Of a DNA stretch of 64,000 nucleotides, positions 21,022-40,402 are shown piece after piece. This DNA is from Candidatus Izimoplasma sp. HR2 (lineage in GTDB: Bacteria > Bacillota_I > Bacilli_A > Izemoplasmatales > Izemoplasmataceae): NCBI GenBank assembly GCA_000753575.1, contig JRFF01000026.1, forward strand, positions 64,238 through 128,237, in the 5' to 3' direction. Every line of letters starts with the position of its first letter. Position 1 is the first letter of the stretch. A model generated the notes under the pieces. The model was not told where the DNA came from. It saw only the letters and a list, made by a program, of their open reading frames with translations, and searched no databases. The position numbers were made by a program, and so were the translations under genes.

Positions 21022-21367
21022 GGGGTTGTTTATGGATTCGACAGGGTAGTTAGAGCTTGATAAGCATGTCAGGGTGGTGCCTGTAATACACTAGGTTAAA
21101 TATAACCGGAAACCAAAATTACGCTTACGCTGCTTAATATATAAGCGCGATCTCCCCTTCTGTAGTCTAGGACAGGAGACAGGAGAACAGTAACTAGAAT
21201 ATATTTAGAATGTGCCGTCTTAACAAACTAAATGAACTTAATAAGACTCGTCAGTATCTTGGCCGTGTATCACTTGGGTGCTGATTAAAACAATTGATAT
21301 ACTAAGCATGTAGAAAATTAAGTTTCGTCTATTTTGGACAGGGGTTCAAATCCCCTCAACTCCACCA
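21022..21367 (+). ncRNA. ssrA: tmRNA (transfer-messenger RNA)
   Basis: 5' GGGGTTGTTTATGGATTCGACAGGG. 3' GGACAGGGGTTCAAATCCCCTCAACTCCACCA. Internal tag frame GGA AAC CAA AAT TAC GCT TAC GCT GCT TAA. Sits directly after smpB. Confidence 0.93.
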
Positions 21368-21369
21368 AT

Positions 21370-21382
21370 GGTACCCGCGTCC
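21370..21382 (+). repeat. GGTACCCGCGTCC 13-mer immediately 3' of the tmRNA CCA (inverted copy of the GGACGCGGGTACC motif in downstream remnants)
   Basis: Direct reading. Its reverse complement matches 40361-40373 (12/13) and 25950-25962 (11/13). Confidence 0.6.
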
Positions 21383-21432
21383 GAGAATTTCAGATGGCTT
21401 TAATTAGCCGTTAATGGAATCCTCGGTTTTTA
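21381..21432 (+). terminator. Intrinsic terminator of ssrA
   Basis: Long hairpin CCGAGAATTTC...GGAATCCTCGG with an inner GGCT/AGCC stem, followed by T5. Confidence 0.7.
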
Positions 21433-21540
21433 TTTACCCAAATTTGAATGAAAATTTGATGAAAATTTGATGAAAAAAATCGGTATTTTTTCGTTCCAGC
21501 CCTGTTGCAATAGGGAAAATGAGAATTTTAGCGAGTCGAA

Positions 21541-21562
21541 CCCGCGTCCAGAAACATTCTAA
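21541..21562 (+). repeat. Second ACCCGCGTCC copy embedded in a T-loop-like fragment (GCGAGTCGAACCCGCGTCCAGA)
   Basis: The 10-mer ACCCGCGTCC is identical to 21373-21382. GTCGAACC is the reverse of a tRNA T-loop. Confidence 0.5.
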
Positions 21563-21735
21563 TAAATTGATGACAACGGCTTTAACTTTACATAGATAAA
21601 GCTATAGGTTTATATTCAAAAACTCATTAGATTTTAGGTGCTTCTATTAATGATATTGATATGCTATAATTAAATTAGAATAAAACTGCAAATAGGACAT
21701 CTATGTCCTATTTTTGCTTTTTGGGGGAGAAAGTT

Positions 21736-22689
21736 ATGAAGAAAAGTTATATGGAGTATATAGAACTTATAGATAAAATGTTCTCTGAAAAAAATTACAC
21801 AAAAGTACTGAAGTTTTTTACCACTGATTATAAGGAATATGATATTACTGAATTTGAGGTGCTTTGGGTTAGAATATGGGCGTTATCTGGGTTGAACAGA
21901 GTAGAAGAGGCAATTGAAAAATTACATGATTTAATTGTAGAAAAAAGATACTGGGTTCTGGAAATGATTACAGAAGAAATAGAAATTGATGCAATCAAAA
22001 GAGATGATAGATATCAAAAATTAATGGAAATATCTGAACAGAACGCAAAGAACTTCAGCTACAAAAAAGAAGGAAAATATGAGATCTTTACTCCAAAAAA
22101 TACAGATGAGAATACTAAATTACTTGTATTTCTCCATGGAAATTACTTAGCAACTGAAGAATTTTCTCAAATTCAAAAAGATACTGTAAATAGTATCGGG
22201 AGTAGATTAAAAGGGGAATTCATAGTTACAATTCCATATTCGTCAAGAATCGCACCTTCTGGACAATCCCTTTGGTATGACTATGGTGAAAGTTCAAAAG
22301 AAATAGAGAAACATTTGAGGATTATACAAGACGAGTATAAAATTATGCCGAGTAATATCATAATTACAGGAGGTTCAGCAGGAGCTGGTGTTGCTACAGA
22401 AGTAGCCTTGAATAATAATATAGAAGTAAATAAGTTCGCACTACTGATTCCACACATTCCAAAGTTAAAGAATAATGACGAAAGAATATCTAATTTGAGA
22501 AAATCTGAATTCTTCATATATAGTTCAACAAACGATTTTTGTATGAAATACGCAAATAAGTTTAGTGAAATCCTCACTCAGAACAACTTTAAACATGTGT
22601 TTCATTGTCCAGATGGATACGGTCATTTCATACCACCTGAAGAAAACTTGCTAGATAGAACCATTAAATACTTCAAATTTAGTGTTTAG
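21736..22689 (+). CDS. Alpha/beta-hydrolase (carboxylesterase/phospholipase-type) with N-terminal helical domain
   Basis: GGSAGAG nucleophile elbow. LVFLHGN oxyanion region. C-terminal GYGH. GGGGGAG RBS before the ATG at 21736. Confidence 0.65.
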   Translation: MKKSYMEYIELIDKMFSEKNYTKVLKFFTTDYKEYDITEFEVLWVRIWALSGLNRVEEAIEKLHDLIVEKRYWVLEMITEEIEIDAIKRDDRYQKLMEISEQNAKNFSYKKEGKYEIFTPKNTDENTKLLVFLHGNYLATEEFSQIQKDTVNSIGSRLKGEFIVTIPYSSRIAPSGQSLWYDYGESSKEIEKHLRIIQDEYKIMPSNIIITGGSAGAGVATEVALNNNIEVNKFALLIPHIPKLKNNDERISNLRKSEFFIYSSTNDFCMKYANKFSEILTQNNFKHVFHCPDGYGHFIPPEENLLDRTIKYFKFSV

Positions 22690-22712
22690 TATTGCTCTTC
22701 ATTATTGGGAAA

Positions 22713-22778
22713 GGGGTTCAAACTTAACACCTTAAATAATAAGGTTTGGACGAAATTTTGTCGAATACAATCCACGCC
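22713..22778 (+). repeat. Two degenerate tmRNA-3'-end-like remnants
   Basis: GGGGTTCAAA is identical to the ssrA T-arm at 21341-21350. It is followed by TTTGGACGAAATTTTGTCGAATACAATCCACGCC, which resembles TTTTGGAC...CTCCACC. Confidence 0.45.
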
Positions 22779-23043
22779 TAAAGAATATAAAAAATGATTT
22801 GAATTTAGAACTATTTTATTGAATATAACAGTGTAGTATATTATAATTTAATTGATAATCAAGAAAATATTGAGGGCTAGATTTTTTATAATTTTTGGCA
22901 ATTTATTAACATGAATACTAGAAGAGTTTCTCTGAGAAATATCCATAAGCTATAACCAATGCATTCCTAAAAAAGGAATAGAGTAATAATTTGAACCATA
23001 ATGAATCTGATAATAAATTTATTTTAGAAGGAGAAGTGAAACT

Positions 23044-23733
23044 ATGAATCATATTTCAGAAATAACTAAATCCACAGCAGCACTTATTGCAGGGATTGGA
23101 TTATTATTAATGACTGTACTTGCGATATTTGCTAACTTTTTTGTTTTAGAGAGTCTTATCGTAGATGGGGATGCAATATTAACATCTAGTAATATTATCG
23201 CTTCAAATGGTTTGTTTCGTTTGGGCATTAGTTGTTTGTTAATTGTAGCAATTCTTGATATAGTTGTAGCTTGGGCATTATATATCATGCTTAAGCCAAT
23301 TAATAGGAGTCTTTCACTATTGACAGCTATATTTAGGATAGTATATGCTGCCATATTAGGAGTAGCTATAGCCAGTCTTCTTAATGTCTTAAACCTTTTA
23401 AGTGGTGCTGATTATTTGACAGTATTTGACACTAATCAATTGTATTCTGAAGTGATGTTATCAATTAATACATTTAACAATATCTGGAATATTGGAATTG
23501 TATTTTTCGGATTACATCTATTTCTTCTTGGATATTTAGTATATAAATCTGGAAATATTCATAAGATTTTTGGAGTTTTATTGATAGTTGCATCTGCTGG
23601 GTATCTTATTGATGCATTTGGAGAATTTCTAATAGTTAATTATAATTTGACTGTTGGTATGTTCACTTTTATTGGTGAATTACTATTTATGTTTTGGCTT
23701 TTAATCAAGGGGAGAAAACATGAGCAAATTTAA
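23044..23733 (+). CDS. DUF4386-like integral membrane protein
   Basis: 229 aa, about 6 TM segments, N-terminal pattern typical of DUF4386 (from memory). GGAG RBS. Confidence 0.5.
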   Translation: MNHISEITKSTAALIAGIGLLLMTVLAIFANFFVLESLIVDGDAILTSSNIIASNGLFRLGISCLLIVAILDIVVAWALYIMLKPINRSLSLLTAIFRIVYAAILGVAIASLLNVLNLLSGADYLTVFDTNQLYSEVMLSINTFNNIWNIGIVFFGLHLFLLGYLVYKSGNIHKIFGVLLIVASAGYLIDAFGEFLIVNYNLTVGMFTFIGELLFMFWLLIKGRKHEQI

Positions 23734-23794
23734 ATTAAATAAAAAAGTGAAGAAAAATAGAAATATCTAATATTTGATAATACGGAGGTGTAAT

Positions 23795-24766
23795 ATGAAA
23801 GCAGTAGTTTATAAGAAATACGGTCCACCTGATACTCTTCAACTCGAAGAAGTTGATAAACCTATTCCTAAAGATAACGAGGTTTTAATAGAAGTTGTAG
23901 CTTCATCAGTTAATGTAGCTGATTTAGGTATGCTTACTGGTAAACCATTTGTTGTTAGATTTTTTTCAGGTCTTTTTAAGCCAAAAAATCCGATACTAGG
24001 ATCAGATGTTTCTGGGATAGTTAAATCAATCGGAAAGAATGTATCATCGTTAAAGATAGGTGATGAAGTATTTGGTGATATCTATGATAGTGGAGCAGGT
24101 GGCTACGCAGAATATGTGTGTGCTGCCGAAAATCTTTTAGTATTAAAGCCATCTAGTATAACATTTGAAGAAGCAGCTGCAGTGCCTGTAGCAGCAGTTA
24201 CTGCTTTACAAGCGCTACAAACAAAAGGAAAAATAATGGCAAAACAACAAGTTTTAATCAATGGAGCATCTGGTGGTGTTGGTTCTTTTCTAGTACAAAT
24301 TGCTAAATCATTTGGGGCAGAAGTAACAGCTGTTTGTAGTTCTAGGAATATTGATATGGCAATAAAGCTAGGCGCAGATTATGTTATTGATTATACAAAA
24401 GAAGATTTTACAAAAAATAAAATGAAGTATGATTTAATTATTGGTGCTAATGGATTTCATTCGATTTGGGATTATAAGCGTTCTTTAACATCTCGTGGGA
24501 AATATGTTATGACTGGGGGAACTGGTGTTCAAATGTTTCAAGCAATAGTTCTTGCCCCGTTTTTATCAATTATTGGAAAAAAGAAGCTAGGTAGTCTAGC
24601 AGCAAAAGCAAATAAAAATGATTTAACATTTTTAGCACAACTTATGGAAACTAGAAAACTAGTACCATATATTGAAAAAGCATACAAATTGAGTGAAATA
24701 ATTAATGCCTTTAAGTATATCTCAGAAGGTCACGCTAAAGGGAAAATAGTTATAAATATAAAATAA
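23795..24766 (+). CDS. Medium-chain dehydrogenase/reductase (NAD(P)H quinone oxidoreductase / Zn-independent ADH-like)
   Basis: MKAVVYKKYG...GASGGVGSFLVQIAK Rossmann motif. GGAGG RBS before 23795. Confidence 0.8.
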   Translation: MKAVVYKKYGPPDTLQLEEVDKPIPKDNEVLIEVVASSVNVADLGMLTGKPFVVRFFSGLFKPKNPILGSDVSGIVKSIGKNVSSLKIGDEVFGDIYDSGAGGYAEYVCAAENLLVLKPSSITFEEAAAVPVAAVTALQALQTKGKIMAKQQVLINGASGGVGSFLVQIAKSFGAEVTAVCSSRNIDMAIKLGADYVIDYTKEDFTKNKMKYDLIIGANGFHSIWDYKRSLTSRGKYVMTGGTGVQMFQAIVLAPFLSIIGKKKLGSLAAKANKNDLTFLAQLMETRKLVPYIEKAYKLSEIINAFKYISEGHAKGKIVINIK

Positions 24767-24839
24767 AACTACTGGATTGAATCAGTAGTTTTTAACTTTT
24801 AGTTGGATATTTGATAGGTTGCTGTGAAGTTTTATTCTT

Positions 24840-24879
24840 GGAAACGGATACCCTTCATGGAGCTTCAACTCCACAAAAG
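24840..24879 (+). repeat. tmRNA-3'-end-like att remnant
   Basis: GGAAACGGATACCCTTCATGGAGCTTCAACTCCACAAAAG. TCAACTCCAC is identical to the ssrA 3' end, and 12/14 match the full core. Confidence 0.55.
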
Positions 24880-24972
24880 ACAGAGGTCCAACCTGGCATA
24901 AATTTAATTATTTCAAGGATATTAATAAATAGAATTTCTAATTATTCCAGTTATTCTAACTACAAGTAATTG

Positions 24973-25006
24973 TTGACATTATACCGATAGCGGGTTAATA
25001 TATAAT
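24973..25006 (+). promoter_or_regulatory. Sigma-A-type promoter for fic
   Basis: TTGACA, 17-nt spacer, TAATAT. Confidence 0.45.
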
Positions 25007-25020
25007 TGAGAGGTGATATC

Positions 25021-25941
25021 ATGAAATTTATTGGAACTAAAGAAATATCAAAAAAATGGGGTATCAATGATCGTAGAGTAAGAATACTATGTGAAGAAGG
25101 TCGTATTGAGAGTGCGATGAAAGTTGGCAAAAGTTGGTTAATTAGAGAAGATGAGGGAAAGCCTTATGATGCAAGAAGAAAAAGTAATAAAGAGTATATT
25201 GAGTTAGAGTTTGATTTTTCAAATATTGATTTATTAAAAAATGAAATAGATTCATATAGACCTTTACCAAATAGATTATCAAAAAGTTTACATAAAAAGC
25301 TAATAGTTGAATGGACATATAATAGTAATGCTATTGAGGGGAATACCTTAACTATGTCTGAAACTAAAGTAGTGCTTGAAGGTATTACGATTGGTGGTAA
25401 AAGTGTTATAGAACATCTGGAAACAATCAATCACAAAGATGCTATATTATTTTTAGAGGAATTAATTGCTGGGGATGAAAACATATCTGAATGGAATATA
25501 AAAAATCTTCACTCTTTAATACTAAAGGATATAGATAATAAAAATGCAGGGAAATATAGAAATGAGAATGTAATTATCAGTGGAGCAAGTCACATTCCAC
25601 CTAATCACGATATTTTACACGAACTTATGCAGAAACTAATAATTGAATATAATAAAGAATGGAATGAGTTTCATCCAGTTATAAAAGCATGCTTGTTGCA
25701 CGGAGAATTTGTTAAGATACATCCATTTATTGATGGGAATGGAAGAACAGCACGACTATTATTGAATTTTGAATTAATGAAATATGGATATACTCCAATA
25801 ATAATTACAAAAACTAGAAGAGCTGAATATTATGATGCATTAGATTTTGCACATACTACGATGGACTATTCTAAGTTTATTCAATTAATTTCAGAATTTG
25901 TGATGGAATCTGAATTGTTATGGCTTAAAGTAATTAGATAA
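25021..25941 (+). CDS. Fic-family protein (class II, autoinhibited) with N-terminal HTH
   Basis: HPFIDGNGRTAR Fic motif. SNAIEG matches the (S/T)xxxE(G/N) inhibitory helix upstream of it. The N-terminal 45 aa look like an excisionase/MerR-type HTH. Confidence 0.85.
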   Translation: MKFIGTKEISKKWGINDRRVRILCEEGRIESAMKVGKSWLIREDEGKPYDARRKSNKEYIELEFDFSNIDLLKNEIDSYRPLPNRLSKSLHKKLIVEWTYNSNAIEGNTLTMSETKVVLEGITIGGKSVIEHLETINHKDAILFLEELIAGDENISEWNIKNLHSLILKDIDNKNAGKYRNENVIISGASHIPPNHDILHELMQKLIIEYNKEWNEFHPVIKACLLHGEFVKIHPFIDGNGRTARLLLNFELMKYGYTPIIITKTRRAEYYDALDFAHTTMDYSKFIQLISEFVMESELLWLKVIR

Positions 25942-25948
25942 TTATACC

Positions 25949-25985
25949 TGGACACGGGTACTCTTCAGGGACCCTAATCGTACCT
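25949..25985 (+). repeat. tmRNA-3'-end-like att remnant (more decayed)
   Basis: TGGACACGGGTACTCTTCAGGGACCCTAATCGTACC aligns with the remnants at 40361 and 24840. Confidence 0.45.
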
Positions 25986-26201
25986 ATTATTACCTGTTAC
26001 CAATTGATAAGAAATACAAAATAAGTTGCAATTAACTGCGATACAACGAACAATATCAAAAACAACCTAAAAGATAAGGAATTTAGCATATACACTACAA
26101 TATTAATTAATTTATATTTCTTTGAAAACGATTAAGTATTTTCTCATAAGGGAAGTCTATTTTCACATATAAAAAAAAGTATATTTTGTATCTTTTTCAT
26201 A

Positions 26202-26233
26202 TTGACAAGTATAGGTAATAGTGTTAGTATAAT
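26202..26233 (+). promoter_or_regulatory. Promoter of the B12 operon
   Basis: TTGACA, 17-nt spacer, TAGTAT (overlapping TATAAT), just upstream of the riboswitch P1. Confidence 0.45.
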
Positions 26234-26243
26234 TGCATGAATA

Positions 26244-26395
26244 AAAGGTAATGGTGTCCTTTGGACATAACAGGGAATTGAGTTAATACTCAAGCTGTCC
26301 CAGCAACCGTGATACTGACGAAATGCAAATACCACTGAGAAATCGGGAAGGTGCAAAGTAGGATGAAGTTTAGCCGGTAGACCTACCATTACCAA
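26244..26395 (+). promoter_or_regulatory. Cobalamin riboswitch
   Basis: P1 is GGTAATGG...CCATTACC. Core elements AGGGAA, GCTGTCCCAGCAACCGT, ACCACTG, GGGAAGG, and B12 box AGCCGGTAGACCTACC. Confidence 0.88.
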
Positions 26396-26466
26396 AAGTT
26401 TTCTCCTGGGTAATGAGATATAGAACTGGCTATTTTAGTTTTTTTAATAGAATCTGGTTTTTTATA

Positions 26467-26497
26467 GTCATATCCCTAGGATATGGCTTTTTTTGTT
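26467..26497 (+). terminator. Riboswitch expression-platform terminator
   Basis: GTCATATCC/GGATATGGC hairpin followed by T7, about 25 nt before the btuF RBS. Confidence 0.6.
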
Positions 26498-26520
26498 CAA
26501 AAAAACTAAGGAGAAGAAAC

Positions 26521-27438
26521 ATGAGAAAATTATTTATTGCATTATTGGTTTTAACATTCGTTATTACTCTTTCTGGATGTAAAGGGGAAATCGAAGTAAC
26601 TGAATTTACAGTTACAGACAGAGAAGGTACTGAAGTAGTAATTCCAACAAACATTACTAAAATTGTATCTACAGCACCATCTAATACAGAAGTAATTATA
26701 GGTTTAGGACTAGGAGATATGTTAGTAGCTGTTGATAAATACTCTCCAACTGAAGGGTTAAGTGAAGACATAGCTATCATTAATTTTAGAGAGCCTGATA
26801 TTGAGTTATTAATATCATTAGAACCAGATATTGTTGTTGCTTCAGGGCACAATAAAGTAGGGGATGATGATCCTTTCAAATTATTAAAAGAAGCAGGAAT
26901 AGCAGTTGTTTATATACCTTCAGCTGATTCACTACAAGGAATATTAGATGATATTACTTTTATTGGATTAGTACTTGGAAAAGTAGAAGAGGCTAATACA
27001 ATAACAACTGATCTCCAAACAGAGTTTGATGAGATAGCAGCTATCGCGGCTACTATTACTACTAAAGTAAATGTTTATTTTGAAATAGGAGACTATAGTG
27101 GAACTCTTTATTCATTTGGAACTGAAACATTCTTAAATGAAGTAGTAACTCTTGTTGGTGGAAATAATATATATAGTAGTGAATCTGGATGGTTAAATGT
27201 ATCTGTAGAAGATATTATTAGTAAAAATCCAGATGTAATTGTAACTAACCAAAGTAACGTTGAAGGTATAGTTGCTAGTATTATGAGTAGAACTGGATTT
27301 GATACTATTGATGCAGTAATTAATAACCAAGTATTTGTTGTGAATGGAAACTCAACATCACGTGGTTCTCAAAATATCATTGAGGGTATTAGAGAAGTTG
27401 CAGAAGCTTTGTATCCAAATTATTACGACTTTGATTAA
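26521..27438 (+). CDS. btuF: Cobalamin/siderophore-type ABC substrate-binding lipoprotein
   Basis: AAGGAG RBS. Lipoprotein signal LTLSGC. Class III (FecB/BtuF) binding-protein fold features. Confidence 0.8.
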   Translation: MRKLFIALLVLTFVITLSGCKGEIEVTEFTVTDREGTEVVIPTNITKIVSTAPSNTEVIIGLGLGDMLVAVDKYSPTEGLSEDIAIINFREPDIELLISLEPDIVVASGHNKVGDDDPFKLLKEAGIAVVYIPSADSLQGILDDITFIGLVLGKVEEANTITTDLQTEFDEIAAIAATITTKVNVYFEIGDYSGTLYSFGTETFLNEVVTLVGGNNIYSSESGWLNVSVEDIISKNPDVIVTNQSNVEGIVASIMSRTGFDTIDAVINNQVFVVNGNSTSRGSQNIIEGIREVAEALYPNYYDFD

Positions 27439-28447
27439 AAGCAAGTACCTACTATTATTAGCGCTATTAACAATAGCGCTAATACTTGGTACTGGAATAG
27501 GTAGTGTTTATATATCTCCCATCAAAATATTTAGTATACTATTACACAAAGTATTTAATATATCACTAATAGATAGTGTAAAGAACACAGATGTTGCAAT
27601 TATTTATCATATCAGACTCCCTCGAGTTTTAATTGCTGCACTTATCGGTGGAAGTTTAGCAATGAGTGGTGCTGCTATCCAAAGTTTACTTCGTAATCCA
27701 TTGGCGTCGCCATATACTTTAGGAGTATCTAGTGGGGCTAGTTTAGGAGTTGCAATAGCAATATCTTTTCATTTAACATCACCATTTTTATCAAATATGT
27801 TTTTACCTGTAGTAGGGTTTTTATCAAGTCTTGTAACAGTAATTTTAATTTTATATCTTGCTCGTAAGATTGATAGAAACTACAGTACAAATACAATAAT
27901 CTTAGTAGGGATTGTTTCAAGTTTATTTATAAATGGACTTCTTACTTTAGTAATTGCTCTTTCAGGAGATGAATTAAAGAATATAATATTCTGGCAGATG
28001 GGATCACTTAGTTTAAGAGGTTATGATCATTTATTAGGGATCCTACCATTTGTTATAATAGGATCACTTGGTTTGCTTGTTTTACATAAAGAATTAGATG
28101 CATTAGCTTTTGGTGAAGAAAGCGCAAAAAATATCGGAGTTAACACTCAAAAAGTAAAAATATTAGTTATATTATTTTCAGCTACATTAACAGGGAGTGC
28201 TATTGCAATTAGCGGTATAATTGGTTTTGTAGGACTTGTATCCCCACATATTGTAAAAAGGATATATGGACAAAAACATCTTACATTATTACCAATAAGT
28301 TTTCTCTTTGGAGGCATATTCTTAATCCTTACAGATTTAATAGCTAGAACAATTGTTTCCCCAAGTGAACTACCTGTTGGATCAATAACGGCATTAATTG
28401 GAGCCCCATTTTTTGCTTTTATATTCTTTTATAAGCGAGGTAAATAA
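27431..28447 (+). CDS. btuC: FecCD-family ABC permease
   Basis: FecCD signature (LPRVL.A...GGSLA.SGA..Q...RNPLASP). No in-frame ATG is near the N-terminus, so a TTG at 27431 overlapping the btuF stop is assumed. Confidence 0.8.
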   Translation: MIKSKYLLLLALLTIALILGTGIGSVYISPIKIFSILLHKVFNISLIDSVKNTDVAIIYHIRLPRVLIAALIGGSLAMSGAAIQSLLRNPLASPYTLGVSSGASLGVAIAISFHLTSPFLSNMFLPVVGFLSSLVTVILILYLARKIDRNYSTNTIILVGIVSSLFINGLLTLVIALSGDELKNIIFWQMGSLSLRGYDHLLGILPFVIIGSLGLLVLHKELDALAFGEESAKNIGVNTQKVKILVILFSATLTGSAIAISGIIGFVGLVSPHIVKRIYGQKHLTLLPISFLFGGIFLILTDLIARTIVSPSELPVGSITALIGAPFFAFIFFYKRGK

Positions 28448-29206
28448 ATGTTTAAAGTAGAAAATTTAGATTATTCATATACAGGAGACAAATTAGTTTT
28501 AAAAGATATTAATTTTGAGTTGTTTGAAAGAGATTTCTTGTCAATAATTGGTCCAAATGGATCTGGGAAAACAACGTTACTAAAAACAGTTTCAAAAATT
28601 CTTAATTCAAATGCGACTATAACAATAAATAATGAAGATATAGCACAGATGAGTCGAAAAAAAATATCGGAAAATATATCATATTTCGCACAATTAAAAG
28701 GAAATATCGCAGATTTGTCAGTTTATGATACAGTGATGCTTGGGAGATATCCCTATATAACTGGATTTTTAGGTAAACCATCGAAAAAGGATAAAGATAT
28801 CGTTAATTCGGCATTAGAAAAGACACAATTAGAAGATCTTAGAGATACATACACATCAAGATTATCAGGAGGGCAATTGCAACGTGTTTTTTTGGCTCAA
28901 ATAATTGCTCAAGATACTAAGATAATTTTACTAGATGAACCAACTAATCATTTAGATCTTAAACATCAAAAAGAGTTACTAGAATATATAAAAACTTACG
29001 CCTACAAACATAACAAAATTGTTATAGGTGTATTCCATGATTTAAGCATTGCTAGAAAATATTCAAACAAGATACTTTTATTAGGTAATGGTGAAATTAG
29101 TAGTTATGATGTAACAAATAGAGTATTTGATACAGACATGATTAATGAGTTATACGGGTTAGATATAAAAAAATACATGATTGAACACTATAAGGAGTGG
29201 ACATAA
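28448..29206 (+). CDS. btuD: ABC transporter ATP-binding protein
   Basis: Walker A GPNGSGKTT, signature LSGGQLQR, Walker B ILLDEP. Confidence 0.9.
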   Translation: MFKVENLDYSYTGDKLVLKDINFELFERDFLSIIGPNGSGKTTLLKTVSKILNSNATITINNEDIAQMSRKKISENISYFAQLKGNIADLSVYDTVMLGRYPYITGFLGKPSKKDKDIVNSALEKTQLEDLRDTYTSRLSGGQLQRVFLAQIIAQDTKIILLDEPTNHLDLKHQKELLEYIKTYAYKHNKIVIGVFHDLSIARKYSNKILLLGNGEISSYDVTNRVFDTDMINELYGLDIKKYMIEHYKEWT

Positions 29207-33118: not shown

Positions 33119-34413
33119 AAACGATAATAATTGCTGGAACAAATAGTGGAGTTGGAAAAACAACAATAACAAAAGCACTTTTAACGCTTATAGATAATGC
33201 TCAAGCTTTTAAAATGGGACCAGATTTTATTGATCCATCATTTTATCGATATATTACGAAAAGAAATGTATATAATCTCGATTTATTTTGTTATCAAGAG
33301 GATAAACTAAAATATGTCTTTAATCGGTATAAAAAAAGTATAAATATTATCGAAGGTGTAATGGGATTATATGGAGGTCTAGGATTTACTTTAGATAATC
33401 ATTCAACAGCTCATACAGCAAGAACACTTGATGCACCAATTTTACTTGTTGTTGATGGTAAACATAAAGATTCATCAATTCAAGCAGAAGTACTAGGATA
33501 TATTAAAAGAGATGAAAGATTAAACATTAAGGGTGTAATTATTAATAATGTTTCTAAAAAAATGTATCAGTATTTATCAAATGCTTTGCAAGAAATAAAC
33601 ATTAAAACTTATGGATATCTCCCTAAAGTACAAGATATTACAATACCTGAAAGACATCTTGGGTTACTACAAGCTCAAGATATTGATAATCTTGATTTAA
33701 ACTTAAATAGATTAAAAGAAGTTGCTAATGAAACAATTGACGTTGGAGAGATAGTAAAAGATTTTGATCATACATTTAATTATCAGGGTATTGAATACTT
33801 TGATATCATCAAAGATATCTTTTTAAACAAGACAATTGCAATTACTAAAGATGAATCATTTAGTTTCTTTTATGATTTGCATCTTGAAATGTTAAAGTGT
33901 AGTGGTGCAAATATTGTATATTTTAGTCCTTTACACGATACTTCACTACCTACAGCAGACTTATATTATTTTAGTGGTGGCTATCCTGAAATATATGTTG
34001 AAGAATTAAGCAAAAATACGAGTATATTTAAAGAAATAAAAGAAACAAGTAAAGCAATTTACGCGGAATGCGGAGGGTATATTTATTTATCAAAAAGTAT
34101 CCTGATTAATAATAAAAAAACATCACTAGTAAATCTCTTTTTCAGTGATATTGTAATGACAAAAATGTTGGATTTTAAACACTTTGGATATTTAGATATT
34201 ATTACAAAAGATGGTTATAAAATAAAAGGTCATGAATTTCATTATTCAAAATTAATTGATTCAAAAGAAAAAGATAATTACTATAATGTTGTTAATAAAG
34301 AGTATATAACAGGGGTTATTAAAGAAAATATAAAAGGAGGATACCCACATATTTTATGGCTATCCAATTTAGAGTATTATAAAAAAATATTTAATGGAGG
34401 AAAAGATGAATAA
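33115..34413 (+). CDS. cbiA: Cobyrinic acid a,c-diamide synthase
   Basis: IIAGTNSGVGKTT P-loop, C-terminal GATase with ECGG. 432 aa. Confidence 0.85.
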   Translation: MKTIIIAGTNSGVGKTTITKALLTLIDNAQAFKMGPDFIDPSFYRYITKRNVYNLDLFCYQEDKLKYVFNRYKKSINIIEGVMGLYGGLGFTLDNHSTAHTARTLDAPILLVVDGKHKDSSIQAEVLGYIKRDERLNIKGVIINNVSKKMYQYLSNALQEINIKTYGYLPKVQDITIPERHLGLLQAQDIDNLDLNLNRLKEVANETIDVGEIVKDFDHTFNYQGIEYFDIIKDIFLNKTIAITKDESFSFFYDLHLEMLKCSGANIVYFSPLHDTSLPTADLYYFSGGYPEIYVEELSKNTSIFKEIKETSKAIYAECGGYIYLSKSILINNKKTSLVNLFFSDIVMTKMLDFKHFGYLDIITKDGYKIKGHEFHYSKLIDSKEKDNYYNVVNKEYITGVIKENIKGGYPHILWLSNLEYYKKIFNGGKDE

Positions 34414-34897
34414 AGGAGTTAGACGCATTACATTTACGGGATTAATGATTGCACTTAGTGCTATATTTGCAAACATTCCAATACCTGGATTCCCAACATT
34501 AGCTTTTGATGCTATACCAGGATATTTAGTCGCAATTTTAATAAATCCAGTTTCAGGAGGAATTATCGCCCTTTTTGGACATTTAGTAACAGCCCTTATC
34601 CATGGTGCCCCTCTAGGAATACCTAGTCATATAATTATTGCATTATCTATGTTTATTTCAGCATATGCACTTGGTCTAATATTTAAAAAAGATAAAATCT
34701 ATAGAATAGTAATAGCTGTAATAATTGCTACATTATTAAATACATATTTGTCTTTTCCGTTTTTAATATTTTTACTAAGAGTACCAGCAGCATATATTCT
34801 TCCATTACAAATTCCTCTTATAATTGCTAGTTTAGTTAATATTTGCGTAGCTATCTTTATATATTTTCCACTTCATAGTATTAGGATAGATTTATAA
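34406..34897 (+). CDS. ECF S-component-like membrane protein, candidate lower-ligand (alpha-ribazole/DMB) transporter CblT
   Basis: About 5 TM segments, 163 aa, GGAGG RBS, embedded in the B12 operon. The CblT assignment is by context only. Confidence 0.4.
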   Translation: MNKGVRRITFTGLMIALSAIFANIPIPGFPTLAFDAIPGYLVAILINPVSGGIIALFGHLVTALIHGAPLGIPSHIIIALSMFISAYALGLIFKKDKIYRIVIAVIIATLLNTYLSFPFLIFLLRVPAAYILPLQIPLIIASLVNICVAIFIYFPLHSIRIDL

Positions 34898-35403
34898 TGC
34901 TAATTCTAGTATCAGGGGGAGTTCGTAGTAATAAGTCATTATTTGCAGAATCACTTATAAATAATAATAAAGTATATATTGCAACAATGAAGTTCTCTGA
35001 TAAAGAAACAAAAAAAAGAATTATAGCTCATCAAAAAAGAAGAGATAAATCGTGGAATAATTATGAAGTGTATAATAATTTTAGTTATAATATTGAATAT
35101 AATAATAAGGAAATACTATTAGATTGTTTAACCAATTTAGTAACTAATGAATTGATTGAGGGCAAAGATAAAAGTTATATTATTGAATCAATTTATAATG
35201 CTATTGTTGAAATTAGTAAAAATACTGATAAGCTTGTTATAGTAACAAATAATGTTTTTGAAGAAGTAGATGATTATTCAGAATTAACTAAAGATTTTTT
35301 AGAAGTATTAGGAAAACTTTCAGTTAGTATTTCACAAATAGCAGATTATGTTTATATATGCGAAGCGGGAATTTGTGTAAATATTTTGGAGGGACAAAAA
35401 TGA
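34897..35403 (+). CDS. cobU: Adenosylcobinamide kinase/guanylyltransferase homolog with atypical P-loop
   Basis: Aligns by eye to CobU (ILVSGGVRSNKS vs ILVTGGARSGKS; IAHQ His region; VTNNV...). The glycine before the Walker lysine is replaced by Asn. Confidence 0.75.
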   Translation: MLILVSGGVRSNKSLFAESLINNNKVYIATMKFSDKETKKRIIAHQKRRDKSWNNYEVYNNFSYNIEYNNKEILLDCLTNLVTNELIEGKDKSYIIESIYNAIVEISKNTDKLVIVTNNVFEEVDDYSELTKDFLEVLGKLSVSISQIADYVYICEAGICVNILEGQK

Positions 35404-36173
35404 AAAAGATATTTAAGATATTTATAATATCATTAGGGTATTTTACAACAATACCTGTTCCTTATTTAAAATGGGAAGATAAATTAAATAAATATATTCC
35501 TTTATTTATTCCTCTTATTGGAATAATAATAGGAACAATATTTTTTGGATTAATAAAATTTATGGAGATTGCACCTATTTCATCACTATTACAAAGTTCG
35601 ATTATTGTAGTGTTTTTTATTTTTATAACTGGAGGACTTCATTTAGATGGATTTATGGATACTTGTGATGCGCATTTTAGTCGTAGAGAGATTCCAAAAA
35701 AACTCATAATAATGAAGGATTCAAATGTAGGAGCTTTTGCTGTCGTTTTTTTACTTGTTCTTTTTCTTATAAAACTTACAGTTATTAATGAAGTAGTATT
35801 AAATAATGATTTAGTTTACATTGTAATTTTGATTCCTATAATTTCAAGAATATATGAATCTTTATTACTTTTAAATACTAGAAAAGCAAAAGATAGTTCT
35901 CTGCAAGCAATGTATGGATCGTTATCAAAAAAATATCAATTAGTATATGTTTTATATATAATAGTTACTATCATAATTGGGTCATTATTAAATGAGTTAT
36001 TATTTGTTTTAACATTGCATACAATTGCAATATTATATTTACTTTACTATAAAAGATTTGCTATTAAACAGTTTGGTGGAATAACTGGAGATGTAGTAGG
36101 TGCTTATGTAGAAATAGTAGAAGTAATTTTATGGACGGGGGTATTACTTTATGGAATTCTATATTGGGGGTAA
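35400..36173 (+). CDS. cobS: Adenosylcobinamide-GDP ribazoletransferase (cobalamin synthase)
   Basis: FTTIPV, GG.HLDGFMDT and GG.TGD motifs. GGAGGG RBS before 35400. Confidence 0.88.
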   Translation: MKKIFKIFIISLGYFTTIPVPYLKWEDKLNKYIPLFIPLIGIIIGTIFFGLIKFMEIAPISSLLQSSIIVVFFIFITGGLHLDGFMDTCDAHFSRREIPKKLIIMKDSNVGAFAVVFLLVLFLIKLTVINEVVLNNDLVYIVILIPIISRIYESLLLLNTRKAKDSSLQAMYGSLSKKYQLVYVLYIIVTIIIGSLLNELLFVLTLHTIAILYLLYYKRFAIKQFGGITGDVVGAYVEIVEVILWTGVLLYGILYWG

Positions 36174-36519
36174 ATATAACGGTAAATTAGAATACGTATT
36201 GAATAAGTATAAAAAAAATGAGTATTTTGATATATCCAAGGACTCCGTTGATGCTATTCTTGATTATGATATTATTAACAATATTGATGATGTTGTACTA
36301 TTTCTCTTACAGAAAGATGAAGACCCTATAAAGTATTTAAAAAAACTTTCATTTGACAATAAAATCATTATTGGGAATATTATTACAAATGGAGTTGTCC
36401 CTATTAATAAACTTCACAGAGAGTTAAGAGATGATGTTGGCTCTTTATATAAATATCTTGTGTCTGTATCAGATTCTACATACAACATTATATATGGAAT
36501 TGAAGTGAAGTTAAAATGA
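36151..36519 (+). CDS. Truncated CobU-like paralog (P-loop + C-terminal segment, central His region missing)
   Basis: FYIGGKYNGK resembles the CobU P-loop. C-terminal TNGVVPINKLHRELRDDVG...YGIEVKLK parallels CobU [23 protein letters not shown]...SGIGVKIK. Confidence 0.5.
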   Translation: MEFYIGGKYNGKLEYVLNKYKKNEYFDISKDSVDAILDYDIINNIDDVVLFLLQKDEDPIKYLKKLSFDNKIIIGNIITNGVVPINKLHRELRDDVGSLYKYLVSVSDSTYNIIYGIEVKLK

Positions 36520-37187
36520 ATGAAATAATAATAGACTCTAAAAATAAGCTTATAGTTACTACAGATAATGCAGGAAGTATTGGTGAAAAAGTTAATGATA
36601 CAATTCAAGTTTCATATGATGTTGTATCATATTTCACTTTGCGTAATGCAATAATTGACAATTTAGCTCAAAACACTAAATTGTTATCGTTCACATTTGC
36701 AAATTTTAATGGTAACGACGCATATAATAAAATTATCAAAGGTATAAATAGAGTATTTGATGAAATAGGATATAAGATACCATATACAAGTAGTACTGAA
36801 AGCAATTATATAATGAAAGAATCAGCTTTTAGTGTGACAGTAATAGGTGAAAAACAGCAATATATAAACACTAGATATAAAAAATATGCTGTAGTAGGAA
36901 AACCATTAATTGGTATTGAAATAATAAATCAAAAAGACGATATTGTTACATTAAAAGAATTTGAGTATCTTTTAAATCACAAAGATATTTCATTAATTAT
37001 CCCTGTAGGATCTAAAGGTATTAATCATAGAACTAAGATGTTACTAGATAAAAAGTTTGTATCTGATAAAATAGATCTAAATAAAAGTGCAGGTCCATCA
37101 ACGTGTATTCTAATCGAGTATAAAAAACTTAATGATATTGATAAAGAAATAATAAAAAAAGTTACTGCGTTAGAACTACTAAGGTAA
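36516..37187 (+). CDS. Uncharacterised B12-operon protein, candidate alpha-ribazole kinase (CblS-like, PurM/ThiL-like N-terminal motif)
   Basis: VTTDNAGSIGEK and IIPVGSKG motifs. Position in an operon that lacks cobT. The assignment is inference. Confidence 0.35.
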   Translation: MNEIIIDSKNKLIVTTDNAGSIGEKVNDTIQVSYDVVSYFTLRNAIIDNLAQNTKLLSFTFANFNGNDAYNKIIKGINRVFDEIGYKIPYTSSTESNYIMKESAFSVTVIGEKQQYINTRYKKYAVVGKPLIGIEIINQKDDIVTLKEFEYLLNHKDISLIIPVGSKGINHRTKMLLDKKFVSDKIDLNKSAGPSTCILIEYKKLNDIDKEIIKKVTALELLR

Positions 37188-37209
37188 AAATGCTTTTAAG
37201 GAGGAAACT

Positions 37210-37467
37210 GTGAAAGAAAAAAATAGTTATAAATATTTTTGTAATAAAGAATGTGAATATTTTCCATGTCATGATCTCCCAGTTGATAACTTTAATTGTT
37301 TGTTTTGTTTTTGCCCGTTATATGAGTTTAGTGATTGTGGAGGAACATATAAGATGATTAAGTTGAAAAATGGTAAAGAAATTAAAAGTTGTATTGATTG
37401 TACTGTTCCTCATAGGAAAGAAAATTATGATTACATTATGAAAATACTCACAGAACACAGGTTTTGA
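37210..37467 (+). CDS. Cysteine-rich small domain protein (B12-operon-associated, function unknown)
   Basis: GTG start after AAGGAGG. 85 aa with 11 Cys (C..C...C; C..C.C; C; C..C). Confidence 0.6.
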   Translation: MKEKNSYKYFCNKECEYFPCHDLPVDNFNCLFCFCPLYEFSDCGGTYKMIKLKNGKEIKSCIDCTVPHRKENYDYIMKILTEHRF

Positions 37468-37520
37468 AAAAATCTTAATATGGGCTCCAACATATGTACC
37501 TGTGTTGTACCAAATAAACT

Positions 37521-37595
37521 TTGAGGAGTTTATTCTCCACCGAACAAACCTGCACCGGACGCGAATAAGTCACAGGGACCATCAACTCCACCAAT
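37521..37595 (+). repeat. attR-like tmRNA-3'-end remnants, including an exact 14-nt copy of the ssrA 3' core
   Basis: 37582-37595 TCAACTCCACCAAT is identical to 21356-21369. It is preceded by GGACGCGAATAAGTCACAGGGACCA. A second weaker copy, TCTCCACCGAA, lies at 37535-37545. Confidence 0.65.
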
Positions 37596-37613
37596 ATTAT
37601 TATTAAAACGAAA

Positions 37614-37640
37614 GACCATCAGTTATTGATGGCCTTTTTA
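37614..37640 (+). terminator. Intrinsic terminator after the B12 operon
   Basis: GACCATCA/TGATGGCC hairpin followed by T5. Confidence 0.6.
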
Positions 37641-37775
37641 TATCTTTATTTAGCAGAATTTTCAAATACATTTAGAGTCATATAATTTAAAGATACATGT
37701 GGATGACTGAAATTGGAATAAAACGGATTATTAAGGCCGTTTTTTTTATAACATTTGGTGCAAAAAAATTATATA

Positions 37776-37803
37776 TTGAGAATTTCATTGTTAGTGTTAT
37801 AAT
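37776..37803 (+). promoter_or_regulatory. Promoter of the PAS-GGDEF-HD-GYP gene
   Basis: TTGAGA, 16-nt spacer, TGtTATAAT (extended -10). Confidence 0.45.
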
Positions 37804-37904
37804 TAAGTCGTAGAGAGAGTTGTGAGTCGTTTTTTTGTTGAATTTTAGTACTTTATATATGTGTTCTTTTTTGCACGTCTCACCTCCTCTAATAGGGGGT
37901 CCAT

Positions 37905-40340
37905 ATGGGAAACGAAATGTTAATGGGAATTATTAATAATGCTATTCTGCTTTTAGGACTTGGAATTTTATATTCTATAATACCAATTGAAAAATCAATA
38001 AATAAAACAATTCAATCATTAATAATTGGATTGTTCTTATCAATGATTGTTATCTTTGTAATGTTAAATCCTTTTGAGGTTGCCCAAGGAGTTGTTCTAG
38101 ACACTAGATCAATTCTTATTAGTGTGGCAGCATTTTTCTTTGGATTTATTCCTGTTTTAATTGTTGTAATATCCGCATCGATATTAAGAATTTCAGACGG
38201 GGGATCTGGAGTTGTTACTGGTGTCTTAGTTATAGTTTCTTCTGGCATAATTGGTCTTTTGTTTAGGAAATTTCGTTATAGTAAAATAATGGATAAGAAG
38301 ATTCGCAGATTAATTGAATTCTATATATTTGCTTTTGTAGTTCATGTAGTTATGTTGATTATGTTTTTAGCGTTGCCAGAAGACATAAGATTTGATTTAA
38401 TTATTAAAGTATCACCTTCAGTTTTAATAGTATATCCAATAGTTACTGTTGCTTACGGTTTATTGATGTTTTTTAGATATGATAATGTAACCGAAAGAGA
38501 AAAATTGGTATCTGAACTTATTAAAGAAAAACAACAATCAGAAATCACTTTGTTATCTGTAGGTGATGGTGTAATTGCAACAGACAAAAGTGGAATAATA
38601 ACTTTGATAAATGTAGTGGCAGAAAATTTAACAGGATGGAAACAAGAAGAAGCAATTGGAAAGAATATTGAAGAAGTATTTAATATTTTTAATGAATACA
38701 CAAAAATCAAAAGCAGTAATATTGTTAACGAAGTTATAAAAAGTGGGAGTGCACAAGAGCTCGCCAACCACACTATTCTATTATCAAAAATAGGAGAAGA
38801 AAGTCCTATCGAAGATAGTGCTGCTCCAATAATAGATCCTAATGGAGAAATAACGGGTGTTGTTTTAGTATTTAGAGATTTATCAGAAAAACAACAAAAA
38901 AGATACGAGATGGAATTACTATTAAATTCGACTCTAGAAGGAATCTATGGTGTTGATAAAAATGAAAACTGTACTTTTGTTAATAAAAGTTTTCTAGAAA
39001 TTCTAGGATTTGATAGTAAAGAAGAAATACTTGGTAAAAATATGCATGATTTAATCCATCATTCATTTGAAGATGGAACTCCGTATCCTTCTAATAAATG
39101 CCGTTTTTCTAATGCTTTAGCTAAAGGAGAACATATCATAATAGATGGGGTATTATGGAGAAAAGATGGTACAACCATTTCGGTAGCGTTTTCACAGACG
39201 CCCCAAATTAAAAACGGTGAAATTAGTGGTGCTGTTTGCACTTTTAAAGATATAACAGAAAGAAAACAAGCAACGAAGTTGTTAGAATTCACTGCGAATA
39301 ACGACTTTTTAACTGGATTACATAATAGACGATATTTTGAGAAAAATCTTTTATACTATGATAAATCAGAAAATTTACCACTAACAATTGTTATGGCTGA
39401 TATAAATGGACTAAAATTAATAAACGATGCATTTGGTCATGAATCTGGTGATAAACTGTTAATTTATGCATCAAATATAATTACTGAATCATGTAAAGAA
39501 CAGGATTTAATTGCTAGAATTGGTGGAGATGAATTTGTAATTGTAATGCCTAACACTAATGAAAAAGATGCTGAAAAGATAATAAACACCATAAATAAGA
39601 AAAGCGCATTAATAAAAATTGAATCATTAGAATTATCAATATCTTTTGGATACAAGAGTAAAACAATGGAATACGAAGTTATTCAGGATGTATATAGAAG
39701 TGCTGAAGATCTTATGTATCGAGAAAAACTTCTTAAAATACCTTCAATGAGAAGTAACGCAATAGAGACAATTCTAAACACTCTATATGAAAAAGATAAG
39801 AATTCAGAGATACATTCTAGAAGTGTATCATTAATAAGTGAGAAAATAGCAATTGCTATTGGAATGAGTAGACAAGATATTGCTGAAGTTAAGACAGCAG
39901 GATTACTACATGATATAGGGAAAATTATTACTCCTTTATCAATTATCAATAAAGTGGGAAAATTATCTTCGGATGAATACTCAATAATGAAAAACCATTC
40001 TGAGATAGGATTTAGAATTTTGAACTCAACTCAACCTATGAGAGGAATATCCAATATTGTTTTAAATCATCATGAAAGATGGGATGGGATGGGCTATCCG
40101 AGAGGGATAAAACAAGAAGAAATACCTATAAAGTCTAGGATTATCTCTATAGCTGACGCATTTGATGCAATGACTAGCGAGAGAACTTACCGCGATAAGA
40201 TTTCAGATGAGGAAGCTTTAAAAGAAATTATTGATAATGGTGGAACTCAATTTGATCCTAAATTAGTCAAAATACTTAAAGAAAAATTCAAAGAGATTAT
40301 CTCAAGTTCAGATAATATAATGCCAAAAGATAATATATAA
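37905..40340 (+). CDS. Membrane sensor with 2 PAS domains, GGDEF and HD-GYP domains (c-di-GMP turnover)
   Basis: About 6 TM segments, PAS regions, IGGDEF with NGLKLINDAFGH, LLHDIGK and HHERWDGMGYPRG. Confidence 0.9.
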   Translation: MGNEMLMGIINNAILLLGLGILYSIIPIEKSINKTIQSLIIGLFLSMIVIFVMLNPFEVAQGVVLDTRSILISVAAFFFGFIPVLIVVISASILRISDGGSGVVTGVLVIVSSGIIGLLFRKFRYSKIMDKKIRRLIEFYIFAFVVHVVMLIMFLALPEDIRFDLIIKVSPSVLIVYPIVTVAYGLLMFFRYDNVTEREKLVSELIKEKQQSEITLLSVGDGVIATDKSGIITLINVVAENLTGWKQEEAIGKNIEEVFNIFNEYTKIKSSNIVNEVIKSGSAQELANHTILLSKIGEESPIEDSAAPIIDPNGEITGVVLVFRDLSEKQQKRYEMELLLNSTLEGIYGVDKNENCTFVNKSFLEILGFDSKEEILGKNMHDLIHHSFEDGTPYPSNKCRFSNALAKGEHIIIDGVLWRKDGTTISVAFSQTPQIKNGEISGAVCTFKDITERKQATKLLEFTANNDFLTGLHNRRYFEKNLLYYDKSENLPLTIVMADINGLKLINDAFGHESGDKLLIYASNIITESCKEQDLIARIGGDEFVIVMPNTNEKDAEKIINTINKKSALIKIESLELSISFGYKSKTMEYEVIQDVYRSAEDLMYREKLLKIPSMRSNAIETILNTLYEKDKNSEIHSRSVSLISEKIAIAIGMSRQDIAEVKTAGLLHDIGKIITPLSIINKVGKLSSDEYSIMKNHSEIGFRILNSTQPMRGISNIVLNHHERWDGMGYPRGIKQEEIPIKSRIISIADAFDAMTSERTYRDKISDEEALKEIIDNGGTQFDPKLVKILKEKFKEIISSSDNIMPKDNI

Positions 40341-40360
40341 TAAACAAAGTAACTAATTGT

Positions 40361-40402
40361 GGATGCGGGTACCCTTTTGGGAACCCCCAGCTCCACTAGA
40401 TG
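40361..40402 (+). repeat. Distal-most tmRNA-3'-end-like att remnant
   Basis: GGATGCGGGTACCCTTTTGGGAACCCCCAGCTCCACTAGATG. It has an 8-bp hairpin GGGTACCC/GGGAACCC in place of the T-arm, then CAGCTCCAC. Confidence 0.5.

Follow-up and report, generated by a model that had tools for sequence, protein, structure and literature searches.

A degenerate, recombinase-less island behind the tmRNA gene of Candidatus Izimoplasma sp. HR2, probably built by repeated site-specific integration

We analysed a 64-kb stretch of DNA from Candidatus Izimoplasma sp. HR2 (contig JRFF01000026.1; hereafter the window, with positions counted from its first letter), in which the tmRNA gene ssrA is followed by about 19 kb of cargo genes. 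The segment 21368-40399 is probably a degenerate composite island, formed by repeated site-specific integration of elements resembling the staphylococcal cassette chromosome (SCC), and of recombinase-less derivatives, into the 3' end of ssrA. The window carries a family of right-end sites; in related contigs these sites bound arrays of modules and are associated with recombinase genes, and strains differ in the modules that they hold. An earlier reading of the sequence alone, here called the original prediction, had proposed successive insertions at the tmRNA 3' end, with older right ends pushed distally and no recombinase left, and the relatives' arrays, complete elements and strain differences bear this out. 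It had also described such a cassette-like system as unusual, which is overstated: the phenomenon is real and already known from other bacteria, with precedents in Dehalococcoides (PMC3146451) and clostridia (PMC10061031).

Right-end sites downstream of ssrA

The integration target is ssrA, which lies downstream of genes for RNase R, SmpB and a TauE-like protein (Pfam) in an AT-rich window (28.9% G+C). The relatives of this SmpB assign the host to the Izemoplasma-like Mycoplasmatota. The exact 14-mer TCAACTCCACCAAT occurs twice in the window, at the end of the gene (21356-21369) and at 37582-37595, where the original prediction had placed its second copy, and in none of 100 shuffles. As in islands at tRNA-type genes (tDNA islands), the tmRNA boundary is intact and its 3' end is repeated distally, as the 14-mer at 37582-37595 and as decayed cores in the sites that we call A, D and 22688-22728 (Table 1).

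Leave-one-out nhmmer searches within the window, which are partly circular as a test, returned the copies at 24839, 25949, 37557 and 40360 each as the top non-training match, with an E-value of 0.03 for site D. A class-1 profile trained solely on 11 sites from other contigs, with the window excluded, matched 25949-25975 (E = 2.4e-5), 24839-24874 (E = 6.3e-5), 37557-37593 (E = 7e-5) and 40359-40396 (E = 4.1e-3), and nothing further in the window below an E-value of 0.04. A class-2 profile, likewise made from relatives only, matched 22688-22728 (E = 3.1e-5). Related contigs included 43 clade loci obtained by scanning metagenome contigs with the ssrA 3' 32-mer, and locus L005. Five relic sites were thus found in the 64-kb window, all of them intergenic, on the + strand and downstream of ssrA. 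Site A agrees with the class-1 consensus at 28 of 38 positions, and site 22688-22728 agrees with sites at +6197 of L117 and +2312 of L096.

Six copies had been predicted. Five sites were recovered by the profiles built from relatives, and the sixth, 37535-37545, was detected by no model and was dropped. The first half of a copy predicted at 22713-22778 corresponds to the class-2 site 22688-22728 (E = 3e-5), whereas its second half is only a weak relic of a proximal arm (E = 0.23). The claim that other intergenic regions lack the motif held throughout the window, where profile searches found no class-1 or class-2 motif elsewhere. Nor did Pfam reveal a recombinase in 21368-40399, and tblastn with serine and tyrosine integrase queries was blank across the window, in agreement with the predicted absence of integrases from the interval.

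The original prediction had named genome-wide dispersal, as of a repetitive extragenic palindromic (REP) element, as the result that would count against it. The copies were instead confined to the 3' side of ssrA and to the + strand: there were no matches in 1.27 Mb of other loci, and the 43 related contigs gave 0 matches in 173 kb upstream of ssrA versus 10 in 93 kb downstream. We therefore find it scarcely credible that the copies are a REP-like repeat, a miniature inverted-repeat transposable element or the end of an insertion sequence (IS) that resembles the tmRNA end by chance or by target mimicry, with no module-wise integration. This explanation draws on an IS3-family element that lies right after ssrA or the core in L001, L003, L089, L116 and L102, and on the similarity of its end (TGGAtTGCGGATAG..GGAC) to the start of the class-1 arm. 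It is opposed by the lack of copies outside the tract downstream of ssrA, in the window as in the other loci and upstream regions; by the single orientation of all class-1 copies; by the exact tmRNA acceptor strand on every preserved copy; and by the fact that the copies bound segments present or absent between strains. In an alignment read by eye, the IS end and site C are only ~40% identical in register.

Anatomy of the sites and associated recombinases

In every junction compared (about 20), identity to ssrA begins exactly at a TC dinucleotide, and at all of the relatives' boundaries the sequence to the right of this TC is the tmRNA acceptor strand. Each copy derives no more than its right 12-14 nt (TCAACTCCACCA) from the tmRNA, and the left ~25 nt are an arm borne by the element (P arm). 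The GC-rich left part, which had been taken for a decayed tmRNA 3' end, is instead a conserved, element-derived arm of two classes. Class-1 arms have the consensus TGGACGmGGGTAyCsTTCAGGGACyC and include window sites A-D; class-2 arms (..ACAGGGGTTGGTCCAAAC and variants) include window site 22688.

A module boundary in the relatives consists of the P arm, TCAACTCCACCA, ~5 nt and then a proximal (P') arm, which comprises a box ACCCGCGTCC, a hairpin with a T-run and a second ACCCGCGTCC. The second box lies ~156 nt from the first, and its position and that of a palindrome are kept in ~20 relatives' arms; in some relatives box 2, when reverse-complemented, matches the T-arm strand GGACAGGGGT of ssrA exactly. 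Compensatory changes affect 10 of the 17 pairs of the P' hairpin, and a T-run follows it, which together suggest that the element supplies its own terminator for ssrA. Two other assignments near the gene were rejected. A permissive Rfam scan of 21300-21750 for a small RNA gene after ssrA gave noise besides tmRNA, the stretch being the P' arm with its covarying terminator, and ATATTATAGGTAAAC...GGGGCTTTTTT, considered as the native ssrA terminator, is instead the proximal arm of a tyrosine-integrase element. A scan of viral contigs for the P' arm found nothing.

The internal junctions of relatives contain a perfect outer inverted repeat, GGACGCGGGTACC-N26-GGTACCCGCGTCC, the whole spanning 25+2+25 bp around a central TC. 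Counted within a half-site, the motif GGACrsGGGT falls at positions 25-16 of the P arm, whereas ssrA (GGACAGGGGT) has it at 20-11. In serine integrases, the motif for the zinc-ribbon domain lies at bp 16-24 in attP and at bp 11-19 in attB, a shift of 5 bp (Rutherford et al., PMC3783163). At the sequence level, the sites show what is described for serine-recombinase sites, namely an imperfect dyad of ~40-50 bp, a central dinucleotide and the 5-bp shift of the motif between attB and attP (PMC3783163). This geometry supports an attP/attB pair of a large serine recombinase with a putative crossover at TC, the junction of T stem and acceptor stem. From it and from the co-location of genes and sites we infer both the position of the crossover and the pairing of recombinase and site.

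Several of the 43 contigs, and L005, carry tandem modules of 0.8-20 kb behind ssrA with well-preserved sites. Three of the ~20 complete modules in the relatives encode a recombinase, and the remainder (0.8-4 kb) carry toxin-antitoxin sets, acetyltransferases, regulators and small membrane proteins. Locus L128 holds a complete element of 20.4 kb, which extends from the ssrA 3' end plus ACCCGCGTCC (positions 1-44) to the right end TGGACGCGGGTAACTTTCAGGGACCC|TCAGCTCCACCA (20423-20461) and encodes two large serine recombinases, a DUF927 helicase, DUF960, RadC and a type I restriction-modification system. Module 1 of L102 (6.9 kb), bounded by ssrA and a class-1 arm, encodes a 519-aa recombinase (Resolvase, Recombinase and Zn_ribbon_recom domains), a truncated second recombinase copy and a Fic protein. 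In L129 and L130, a backbone of the L128 type directly follows the core and P' arm. This backbone, in which homologues of the L102 recombinase lie, is fullest in L128-L130 and consists of a proteasome-like protein, RadC, DUF960, HU, the DUF927 helicase and two large serine recombinases, with defence cargo after it; L131-L134 have only the DUF927 helicase and the recombinase pair.

Integrases beside the same sequence, for which the original prediction had suggested looking, are thus present in relatives as serine recombinases within the L128 and L102 elements bounded by ssrA and a class-1 arm, and their family can be named: they are Ccr-like large serine recombinases. An integrase lies within the island in L102, L128, L129, L130 and L117 and not in the window. 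Since complete relatives bounded by the same sites encode a large serine recombinase and the window does not, the window appears to hold derivatives rather than autonomous members.

The recombinase-bearing elements of L128-L135 are defence islands, with type I restriction-modification, GmrSD, TIR/SLATT (Thoeris-like), AbiH, AbiTii and a SNF2/methylase/endonuclease set. A phage-like contig (L127), which also encodes an M15 peptidase and glycine-rich tail-like proteins, carries at its end (105-1664) a homologue 85% identical to the L102 recombinase; phages may use the same integrase family. Large serine recombinase genes also lie within ~2.5 kb downstream of ssrA in unrelated Bacillota, namely L074 and L034 (Eubacteriaceae) and L010 (a Bacillales metagenome-assembled genome, MAG); no right-end repeat was found within 10 kb in these three.

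Tyrosine integrases use this gene as well. In L117, module 1 (+73..+1023, minus strand) encodes a Phage_integrase protein, ends on the right in an identical repeat of 27 nt and is equipped with a proximal arm of its own, which includes a terminator; the same integrase occurs in L125 and L085, and a fragment persists beyond the final site in L094. The site is therefore contested by two or more recombinase families. An alternative is that the window holds ordinary tyrosine-integrase islands, products of the classical mechanism at tRNA and tmRNA genes, and that each repeat is an earlier ssrA 3' end, displaced and then decayed on its own; the sequence past site D does resemble the proximal arm of the tyrosine element (TAAGTAAA ... 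hairpin ... T-run). However, the window copies share the non-tmRNA sequences GGACGmGGGTAyCsTTCAGGGACyC and ..GGGGTTGGTCCAAAC with one another and with other species, and independent decay of a T arm would not yield shared derived sequence. Moreover, ssrA identity always starts from TC, the arm ends serine-recombinase elements and not tyrosine-recombinase ones, and the 26 bp that separate the inverted boxes are more than a tyrosine-recombinase core would span. We accordingly give this alternative very little credence.

The sites and elements are best accommodated by the following scheme of serial integration. A Ccr-like large serine recombinase, usually one of a pair, would act on the tmRNA gene and on an element site of ~52 bp (P arm - TC - P' arm), crossing over at the TC dinucleotide between T stem and acceptor stem. 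The P' arm would bring AACTCCACCA, by which the tmRNA 3' end is rebuilt, and the box ACCCGCGTCC and intrinsic terminator after the P' arm would substitute for the terminator of ssrA. The P arm would land at the far side, joined to the displaced AACTCCACCA, and would so create the copies described in the original prediction; every new insertion at ssrA would shift earlier modules distally.

Strain differences and module movement

The check proposed with the original prediction, presence or absence of modules in relatives, revealed polymorphism in three pairs: L001 and the window, L094 and L110, and L097 and L102. Over the 11.9 kb that end at 21369, the conspecific strain L001 is 95.3% identical to the window; it resumes at 37596 and is without the 16,226 bp (21370-37595) between the two 14-mers, so that the difference falls exactly at the repeats and site C is the distal border of the missing segment. 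L001 represents either the ancestral state or a deletion. L094 and L110 share 99.4% identity as far as +1034, over ssrA, cassette 1 and the arm after it, and have different cassettes beyond, and L097 lacks the 6.9-kb recombinase module of L102.

Modules are also shared between species above the level of host DNA. A GntR-ABC cassette without a recombinase is 93.5% identical between position 1 of L005 and position 4 of L117, with host DNA at 72-80%; a helix-turn-helix (HTH) cassette, also without a recombinase, is 99% identical between L086 and L093, with host DNA at 85%; and window positions 24970-25945 (Fic) are 90% identical to the Fic gene in the recombinase module of L102, with flanking housekeeping DNA at 75%. 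This sharing suggests that recombinase-less cassettes may be mobilised in trans. The window has the composition of a cis-mobilisable or pseudo-SCC array, in that five modules each end in a P-arm relic and none has a recombinase.

The window relics are 71-79% identical to the class-1 consensus, and the relatives' sites are visibly better conserved in the alignment. At this divergence the sites are probably no longer functional, and the array is apparently old and probably immobile except for the strain-variable segment from ssrA to C. With the recombinase genes gone and all five right-end sites mutated, the modules are probably fixed cargo now.

In L001 the place of the 16.2 kb is taken by the 40-nt end of an IS3-family element. 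Such an element directly follows ssrA in L001, L003, L089 and L116, with an intact copy and its inverted repeats in L003; in several species the insertions lie 2 nt past the ssrA CCA or after a right-end core (L001 11870-12009, L003 2932-4200, L089, L116 with two copies, and L102 at +8615). The sequence after ssrA in L001 and L003 was rejected as a diverged homologue of site C, since it belongs to this element as its inverted repeat. The terminal repeat of the element, TGGA(A/T)TGCGGATAGTAAATTGGACA, resembles the class-1 arm start TGGAyGCGGGTA, which hints at IS3 targeting by end mimicry.

A further alternative is that the sites are former recombinase targets and that homologous exchange between the long P' arms, following DNA uptake for instance, now accounts for most cassette turnover, with no mobilisation in trans. 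When L097 is compared with L102, the informative sites follow the proximal repeat up to +178 and the distal one from +220, as expected of a crossover within ~350-nt direct repeats, and the homology of L094 with L110 and of the window with L005 stops at the arm end, not at TC. Homologous recombination nevertheless leaves unexplained how arm and core were first installed at the distal ends of cassettes and why P arms are conserved (85-97%) in recombinase-less cassettes. We consider this alternative unlikely; it is compatible with serial site-specific integration and does not exclude it.

Several observations weigh against serial integration by serine recombinases. The window contains no recombinase, and there is no sign of activity in this genome. 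The putative pairing of recombinase and site is drawn from co-location in four loci, and class-2 arms are tied to no specific recombinase. The homology of close strains breaks just past box 2 of the P' arm and not at TC; some of the turnover of cassettes may therefore have come about by homologous exchange through the repeated arms of ~175-350 nt, or box 2 may mark a second site. G+C content is flat over the interval and leaves the module borders unmarked, and the GC profile suggested with the original prediction was accordingly uninformative. Of the IS3 end found behind ssrA in L001, the initial 40 nt are missing after site C in the window, and an extra deletion must be assumed. The arrays, finally, could only have formed if sites already occupied (B arm - TC - P' arm) were used again, which a canonical serine integrase would not be expected to do. 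Ccr-type promiscuity is the only known precedent for this.

We also put forward, as a tentative and rather less probable extension, that the ssrA gene of Izemoplasma-like Mollicutes is the platform of an integron-like system. Ccr-like serine recombinases from larger, SCC-like defence islands would capture, stack and exchange recombinase-less cassettes of 0.8-4 kb in trans between species, box 2 would be a second functional site, and the window would be a fossil array that delivered the 11-kb B12 operon. Each cassette would consist of cargo and an attachment module of ~230 bp, made up of the P arm, the tmRNA acceptor strand, box 1, the built-in ssrA terminator, the palindrome and the inverted, attB-like box 2.

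If serial integration is correct, the ~19 kb beside ssrA, with its complete cobalamin operon, Fic protein and cyclic di-GMP signalling gene, is acquired, strain-variable cargo and not core genome, which would explain why MAGs of this clade frequently break at ssrA. MAG contigs L001, L004, L006, L083, L092, L104, L107, L113 and L118 end less than 200 nt after the gene, probably through repeated arms, IS copies and strain heterogeneity. The stacking of serine-recombinase islands (SCC/Dsi-like) at the tmRNA gene would thereby extend to the Izemoplasmatales. The relatives provide clean natural sets of attP, attB, attL and attR sequences, with a geometry that follows the published serine-integrase rule, which may serve integrase prospecting, and very small recombinase-less cassettes that appear to move between species raise the question of how serine recombinases use an occupied site.

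Known systems and layout of the island

The closest counterparts are the ssrA-specific islands (ssrA-GIs) of Dehalococcoides with their DsiB/DsiA serine recombinases (McMurdie et al. 2011, PMC3146451). These have direct repeats and a conserved adjacent motif, and 15 of them (about half) lack an integration module and were read as cis-mobilisable elements (PMC3146451). SCC-like elements with large serine recombinases and ssrA-end repeats have also been described in ssrA of C. difficile, C. perfringens and T. sanguinis (PMC10061031). Like the ssrA-GIs, the islands here are arranged in tandem immediately behind a single-copy tmRNA gene, use, in the relatives, a Ccr-like large serine recombinase as integrase together with a second serine recombinase, and in many cases have no integration module. 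The host is a member of the Mycoplasmatota (Izemoplasma-like), whereas Dehalococcoides belongs to the Chloroflexota. The putative crossover is at the T-stem/acceptor junction rather than in the T loop, and the repeat measures 12-14 nt, against 20 nt in Dehalococcoides. In the elements described here the recombinase genes occupy a middle position and read in the same direction as ssrA, whereas in Dehalococcoides they lie at the left edge and overlap attL. The backbone here consists of the DUF927 helicase, DUF960 and RadC in place of RecF, ParB, Mom and a pseudo-tRNA. The present modules are in many cases much smaller (0.8-4 kb) and share an arm of ~175 nt with a built-in terminator.

The best-studied analogue is provided by the SCC and pseudo-SCC composites at rlmH. 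The likeness lies in the large serine recombinase pair beside a DUF927 (Cch-type) helicase and DUF960 in L128-L130, in integration at the 3' end of a single-copy essential gene, in tandem units of which some have no recombinase, as in pseudo-SCC composites, and in the defence-rich cargo of the relatives. In contrast to SCC in the strict sense, the target is ssrA and not rlmH (orfX) and the host clade is different, and the window has only decayed recombinase-less units with no ccr-type pair, DUF927 or DUF960. To our knowledge, no SCC has been reported to carry a long conserved P' arm that combines a terminator, a palindrome and a second box.

Two further systems offer partial parallels. Cis-mobilisable elements (CIMEs) and the accretion of ICESt1/ICESt3-type integrative and conjugative elements, as far as the concept is cited in PMC3146451, likewise involve modules flanked by attachment sites and without recombination genes, in tandem with autonomous elements, with or by which, according to the same citation, CIMEs may be mobilised. 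Those systems differ in using tyrosine integrases and the 3' end of fda, where the present one has serine recombinases and ssrA. Integron arrays are similar by analogy only, in their small co-oriented modules of 1-3 genes, each closed by one conserved structured recombination site, in the joining of new units beside a fixed platform and in cargo rich in toxin-antitoxin and acetyltransferase genes. Here, unlike in integrons, there is no IntI tyrosine integrase, attI, attC or common promoter, and the cassettes have their own promoters and terminators. An assignment to integrons proper was dropped, as no tyrosine integrase lies beside the window array and the sites have serine-recombinase geometry.

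The gene contents of the modules, as originally predicted, were recovered by Pfam and Rfam (Table 1).

Table 1. Features of ssrA and the downstream island in the window
Feature	Position	Strand	Evidence
ssrA (tmRNA gene), full length, tag peptide GNQNYAYAA	21022-21367	+	ARAGORN; Rfam RF00023, 173.9 bits
ssrA T-arm 5' strand GGACAGGGGT, putatively acting as B arm	21336-21345	+	
Left junction (attL) core TCAACTCCACCAAT	21356-21369	+	Inferred crossover dinucleotide TC at 21356-21357, T-stem/acceptor-stem junction
Proximal (P') arm of module 1	21368-21556	+	Profile of 20 relatives' arms, E 2.8e-48
P' arm box 1 ACCCGCGTCC	21373-21382	+	
P' arm terminator hairpin, followed by T-run	21381-21426	+	
P' arm 11-nt tandem repeat GAAAATTTGAT	21450-21471	+	
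P' arm palindrome CCCTGTTGCAATAGGG, 16 bp	21500-21515	+	
P' arm box 2 ACCCGCGTCC	21540-21549	+	
Module 1 cargo: alpha/beta-hydrolase (esterase-like) gene	21703-22689	+	Pfam BD-FAE / Abhydrolase_3
Module 1 relic right-end site: class-2 P arm (TATTGCTCTTCATTATTGGGAAAGGGGTT..CAAAC) and decayed core TTAACACC	22688-22728	+	Class-2 profile
Weak relic of module 2 P' arm (box-2 region, hairpin deleted)	22738-22782	+	P'-arm profile positions 131-174, E 0.23 (weak)
Module 2 cargo: DUF4386 protein (23044-23733) and zinc-type oxidoreductase (23774-24766)	23044-24766	+	Pfam
Relic right-end site A: class-1 P arm and core TCAACTCCACAA	24839-24878	+	Class-1 profile
Module 3 cargo: Fic-domain protein with N-terminal HTH	25021-25941	+	Pfam
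Relic right-end site B: class-1 P arm, core mostly deleted (GGGACCCT-AATCGTACC)	25949-25987	+	Class-1 profile
Module 4 cargo: cobalamin riboswitch (26235-26404) and 11-kb cobalamin transport/biosynthesis operon	26235-37467	+	Rfam RF00174; Pfam of identical contig L081
Right-end site C: partly decayed class-1 P arm, intact core TCAACTCCACCAAT	37557-37595	+	Class-1 profile; exact 14-mer
IS3-family insertion sequence remnant, 125 nt	37596-37720	.	blastn, 87% to L001
Module 5 cargo: 5TM-PAS-PAS-GGDEF-HD-GYP signalling protein	37905-40340	+	Pfam
Relic right-end site D: class-1 P arm and core variant CAGCTCCAC	40360-40399	+	Class-1 profile

The core variant CAGCTCCAC of site D is also present in the ssrA gene of L128 (L128 18-29) and in the right-end site of that element. 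Relic D has this acceptor-strand variant at 40388-40396, whereas the host now has CAACTCCAC; the relic may be older than a compensatory change in the acceptor stem of the host, or may have come with foreign flanking DNA. The conspecific contig L112 has a gap and N's at the tandem repeat 21450-21471, which suggests that the repeat varies in copy number.

An exact-protein look-up of the Fic protein with a TTG start gave no match, and that of the GGDEF protein matched only contigs identical to the window. A promoter scan gave no excess over shuffled background. A paralogue of the GGDEF/HD-GYP gene lies at 61377-62366, with 75% nucleotide identity to ~39308-40297. Elsewhere in the window, a tetrahydrofolate (THF) riboswitch occupies 5402-5494 (Rfam, 68.7 bits), and repeated microcompartment shell (BMC) genes lie at ~50.2-51.0 kb beside an aldehyde dehydrogenase gene and an RnfC-like gene.

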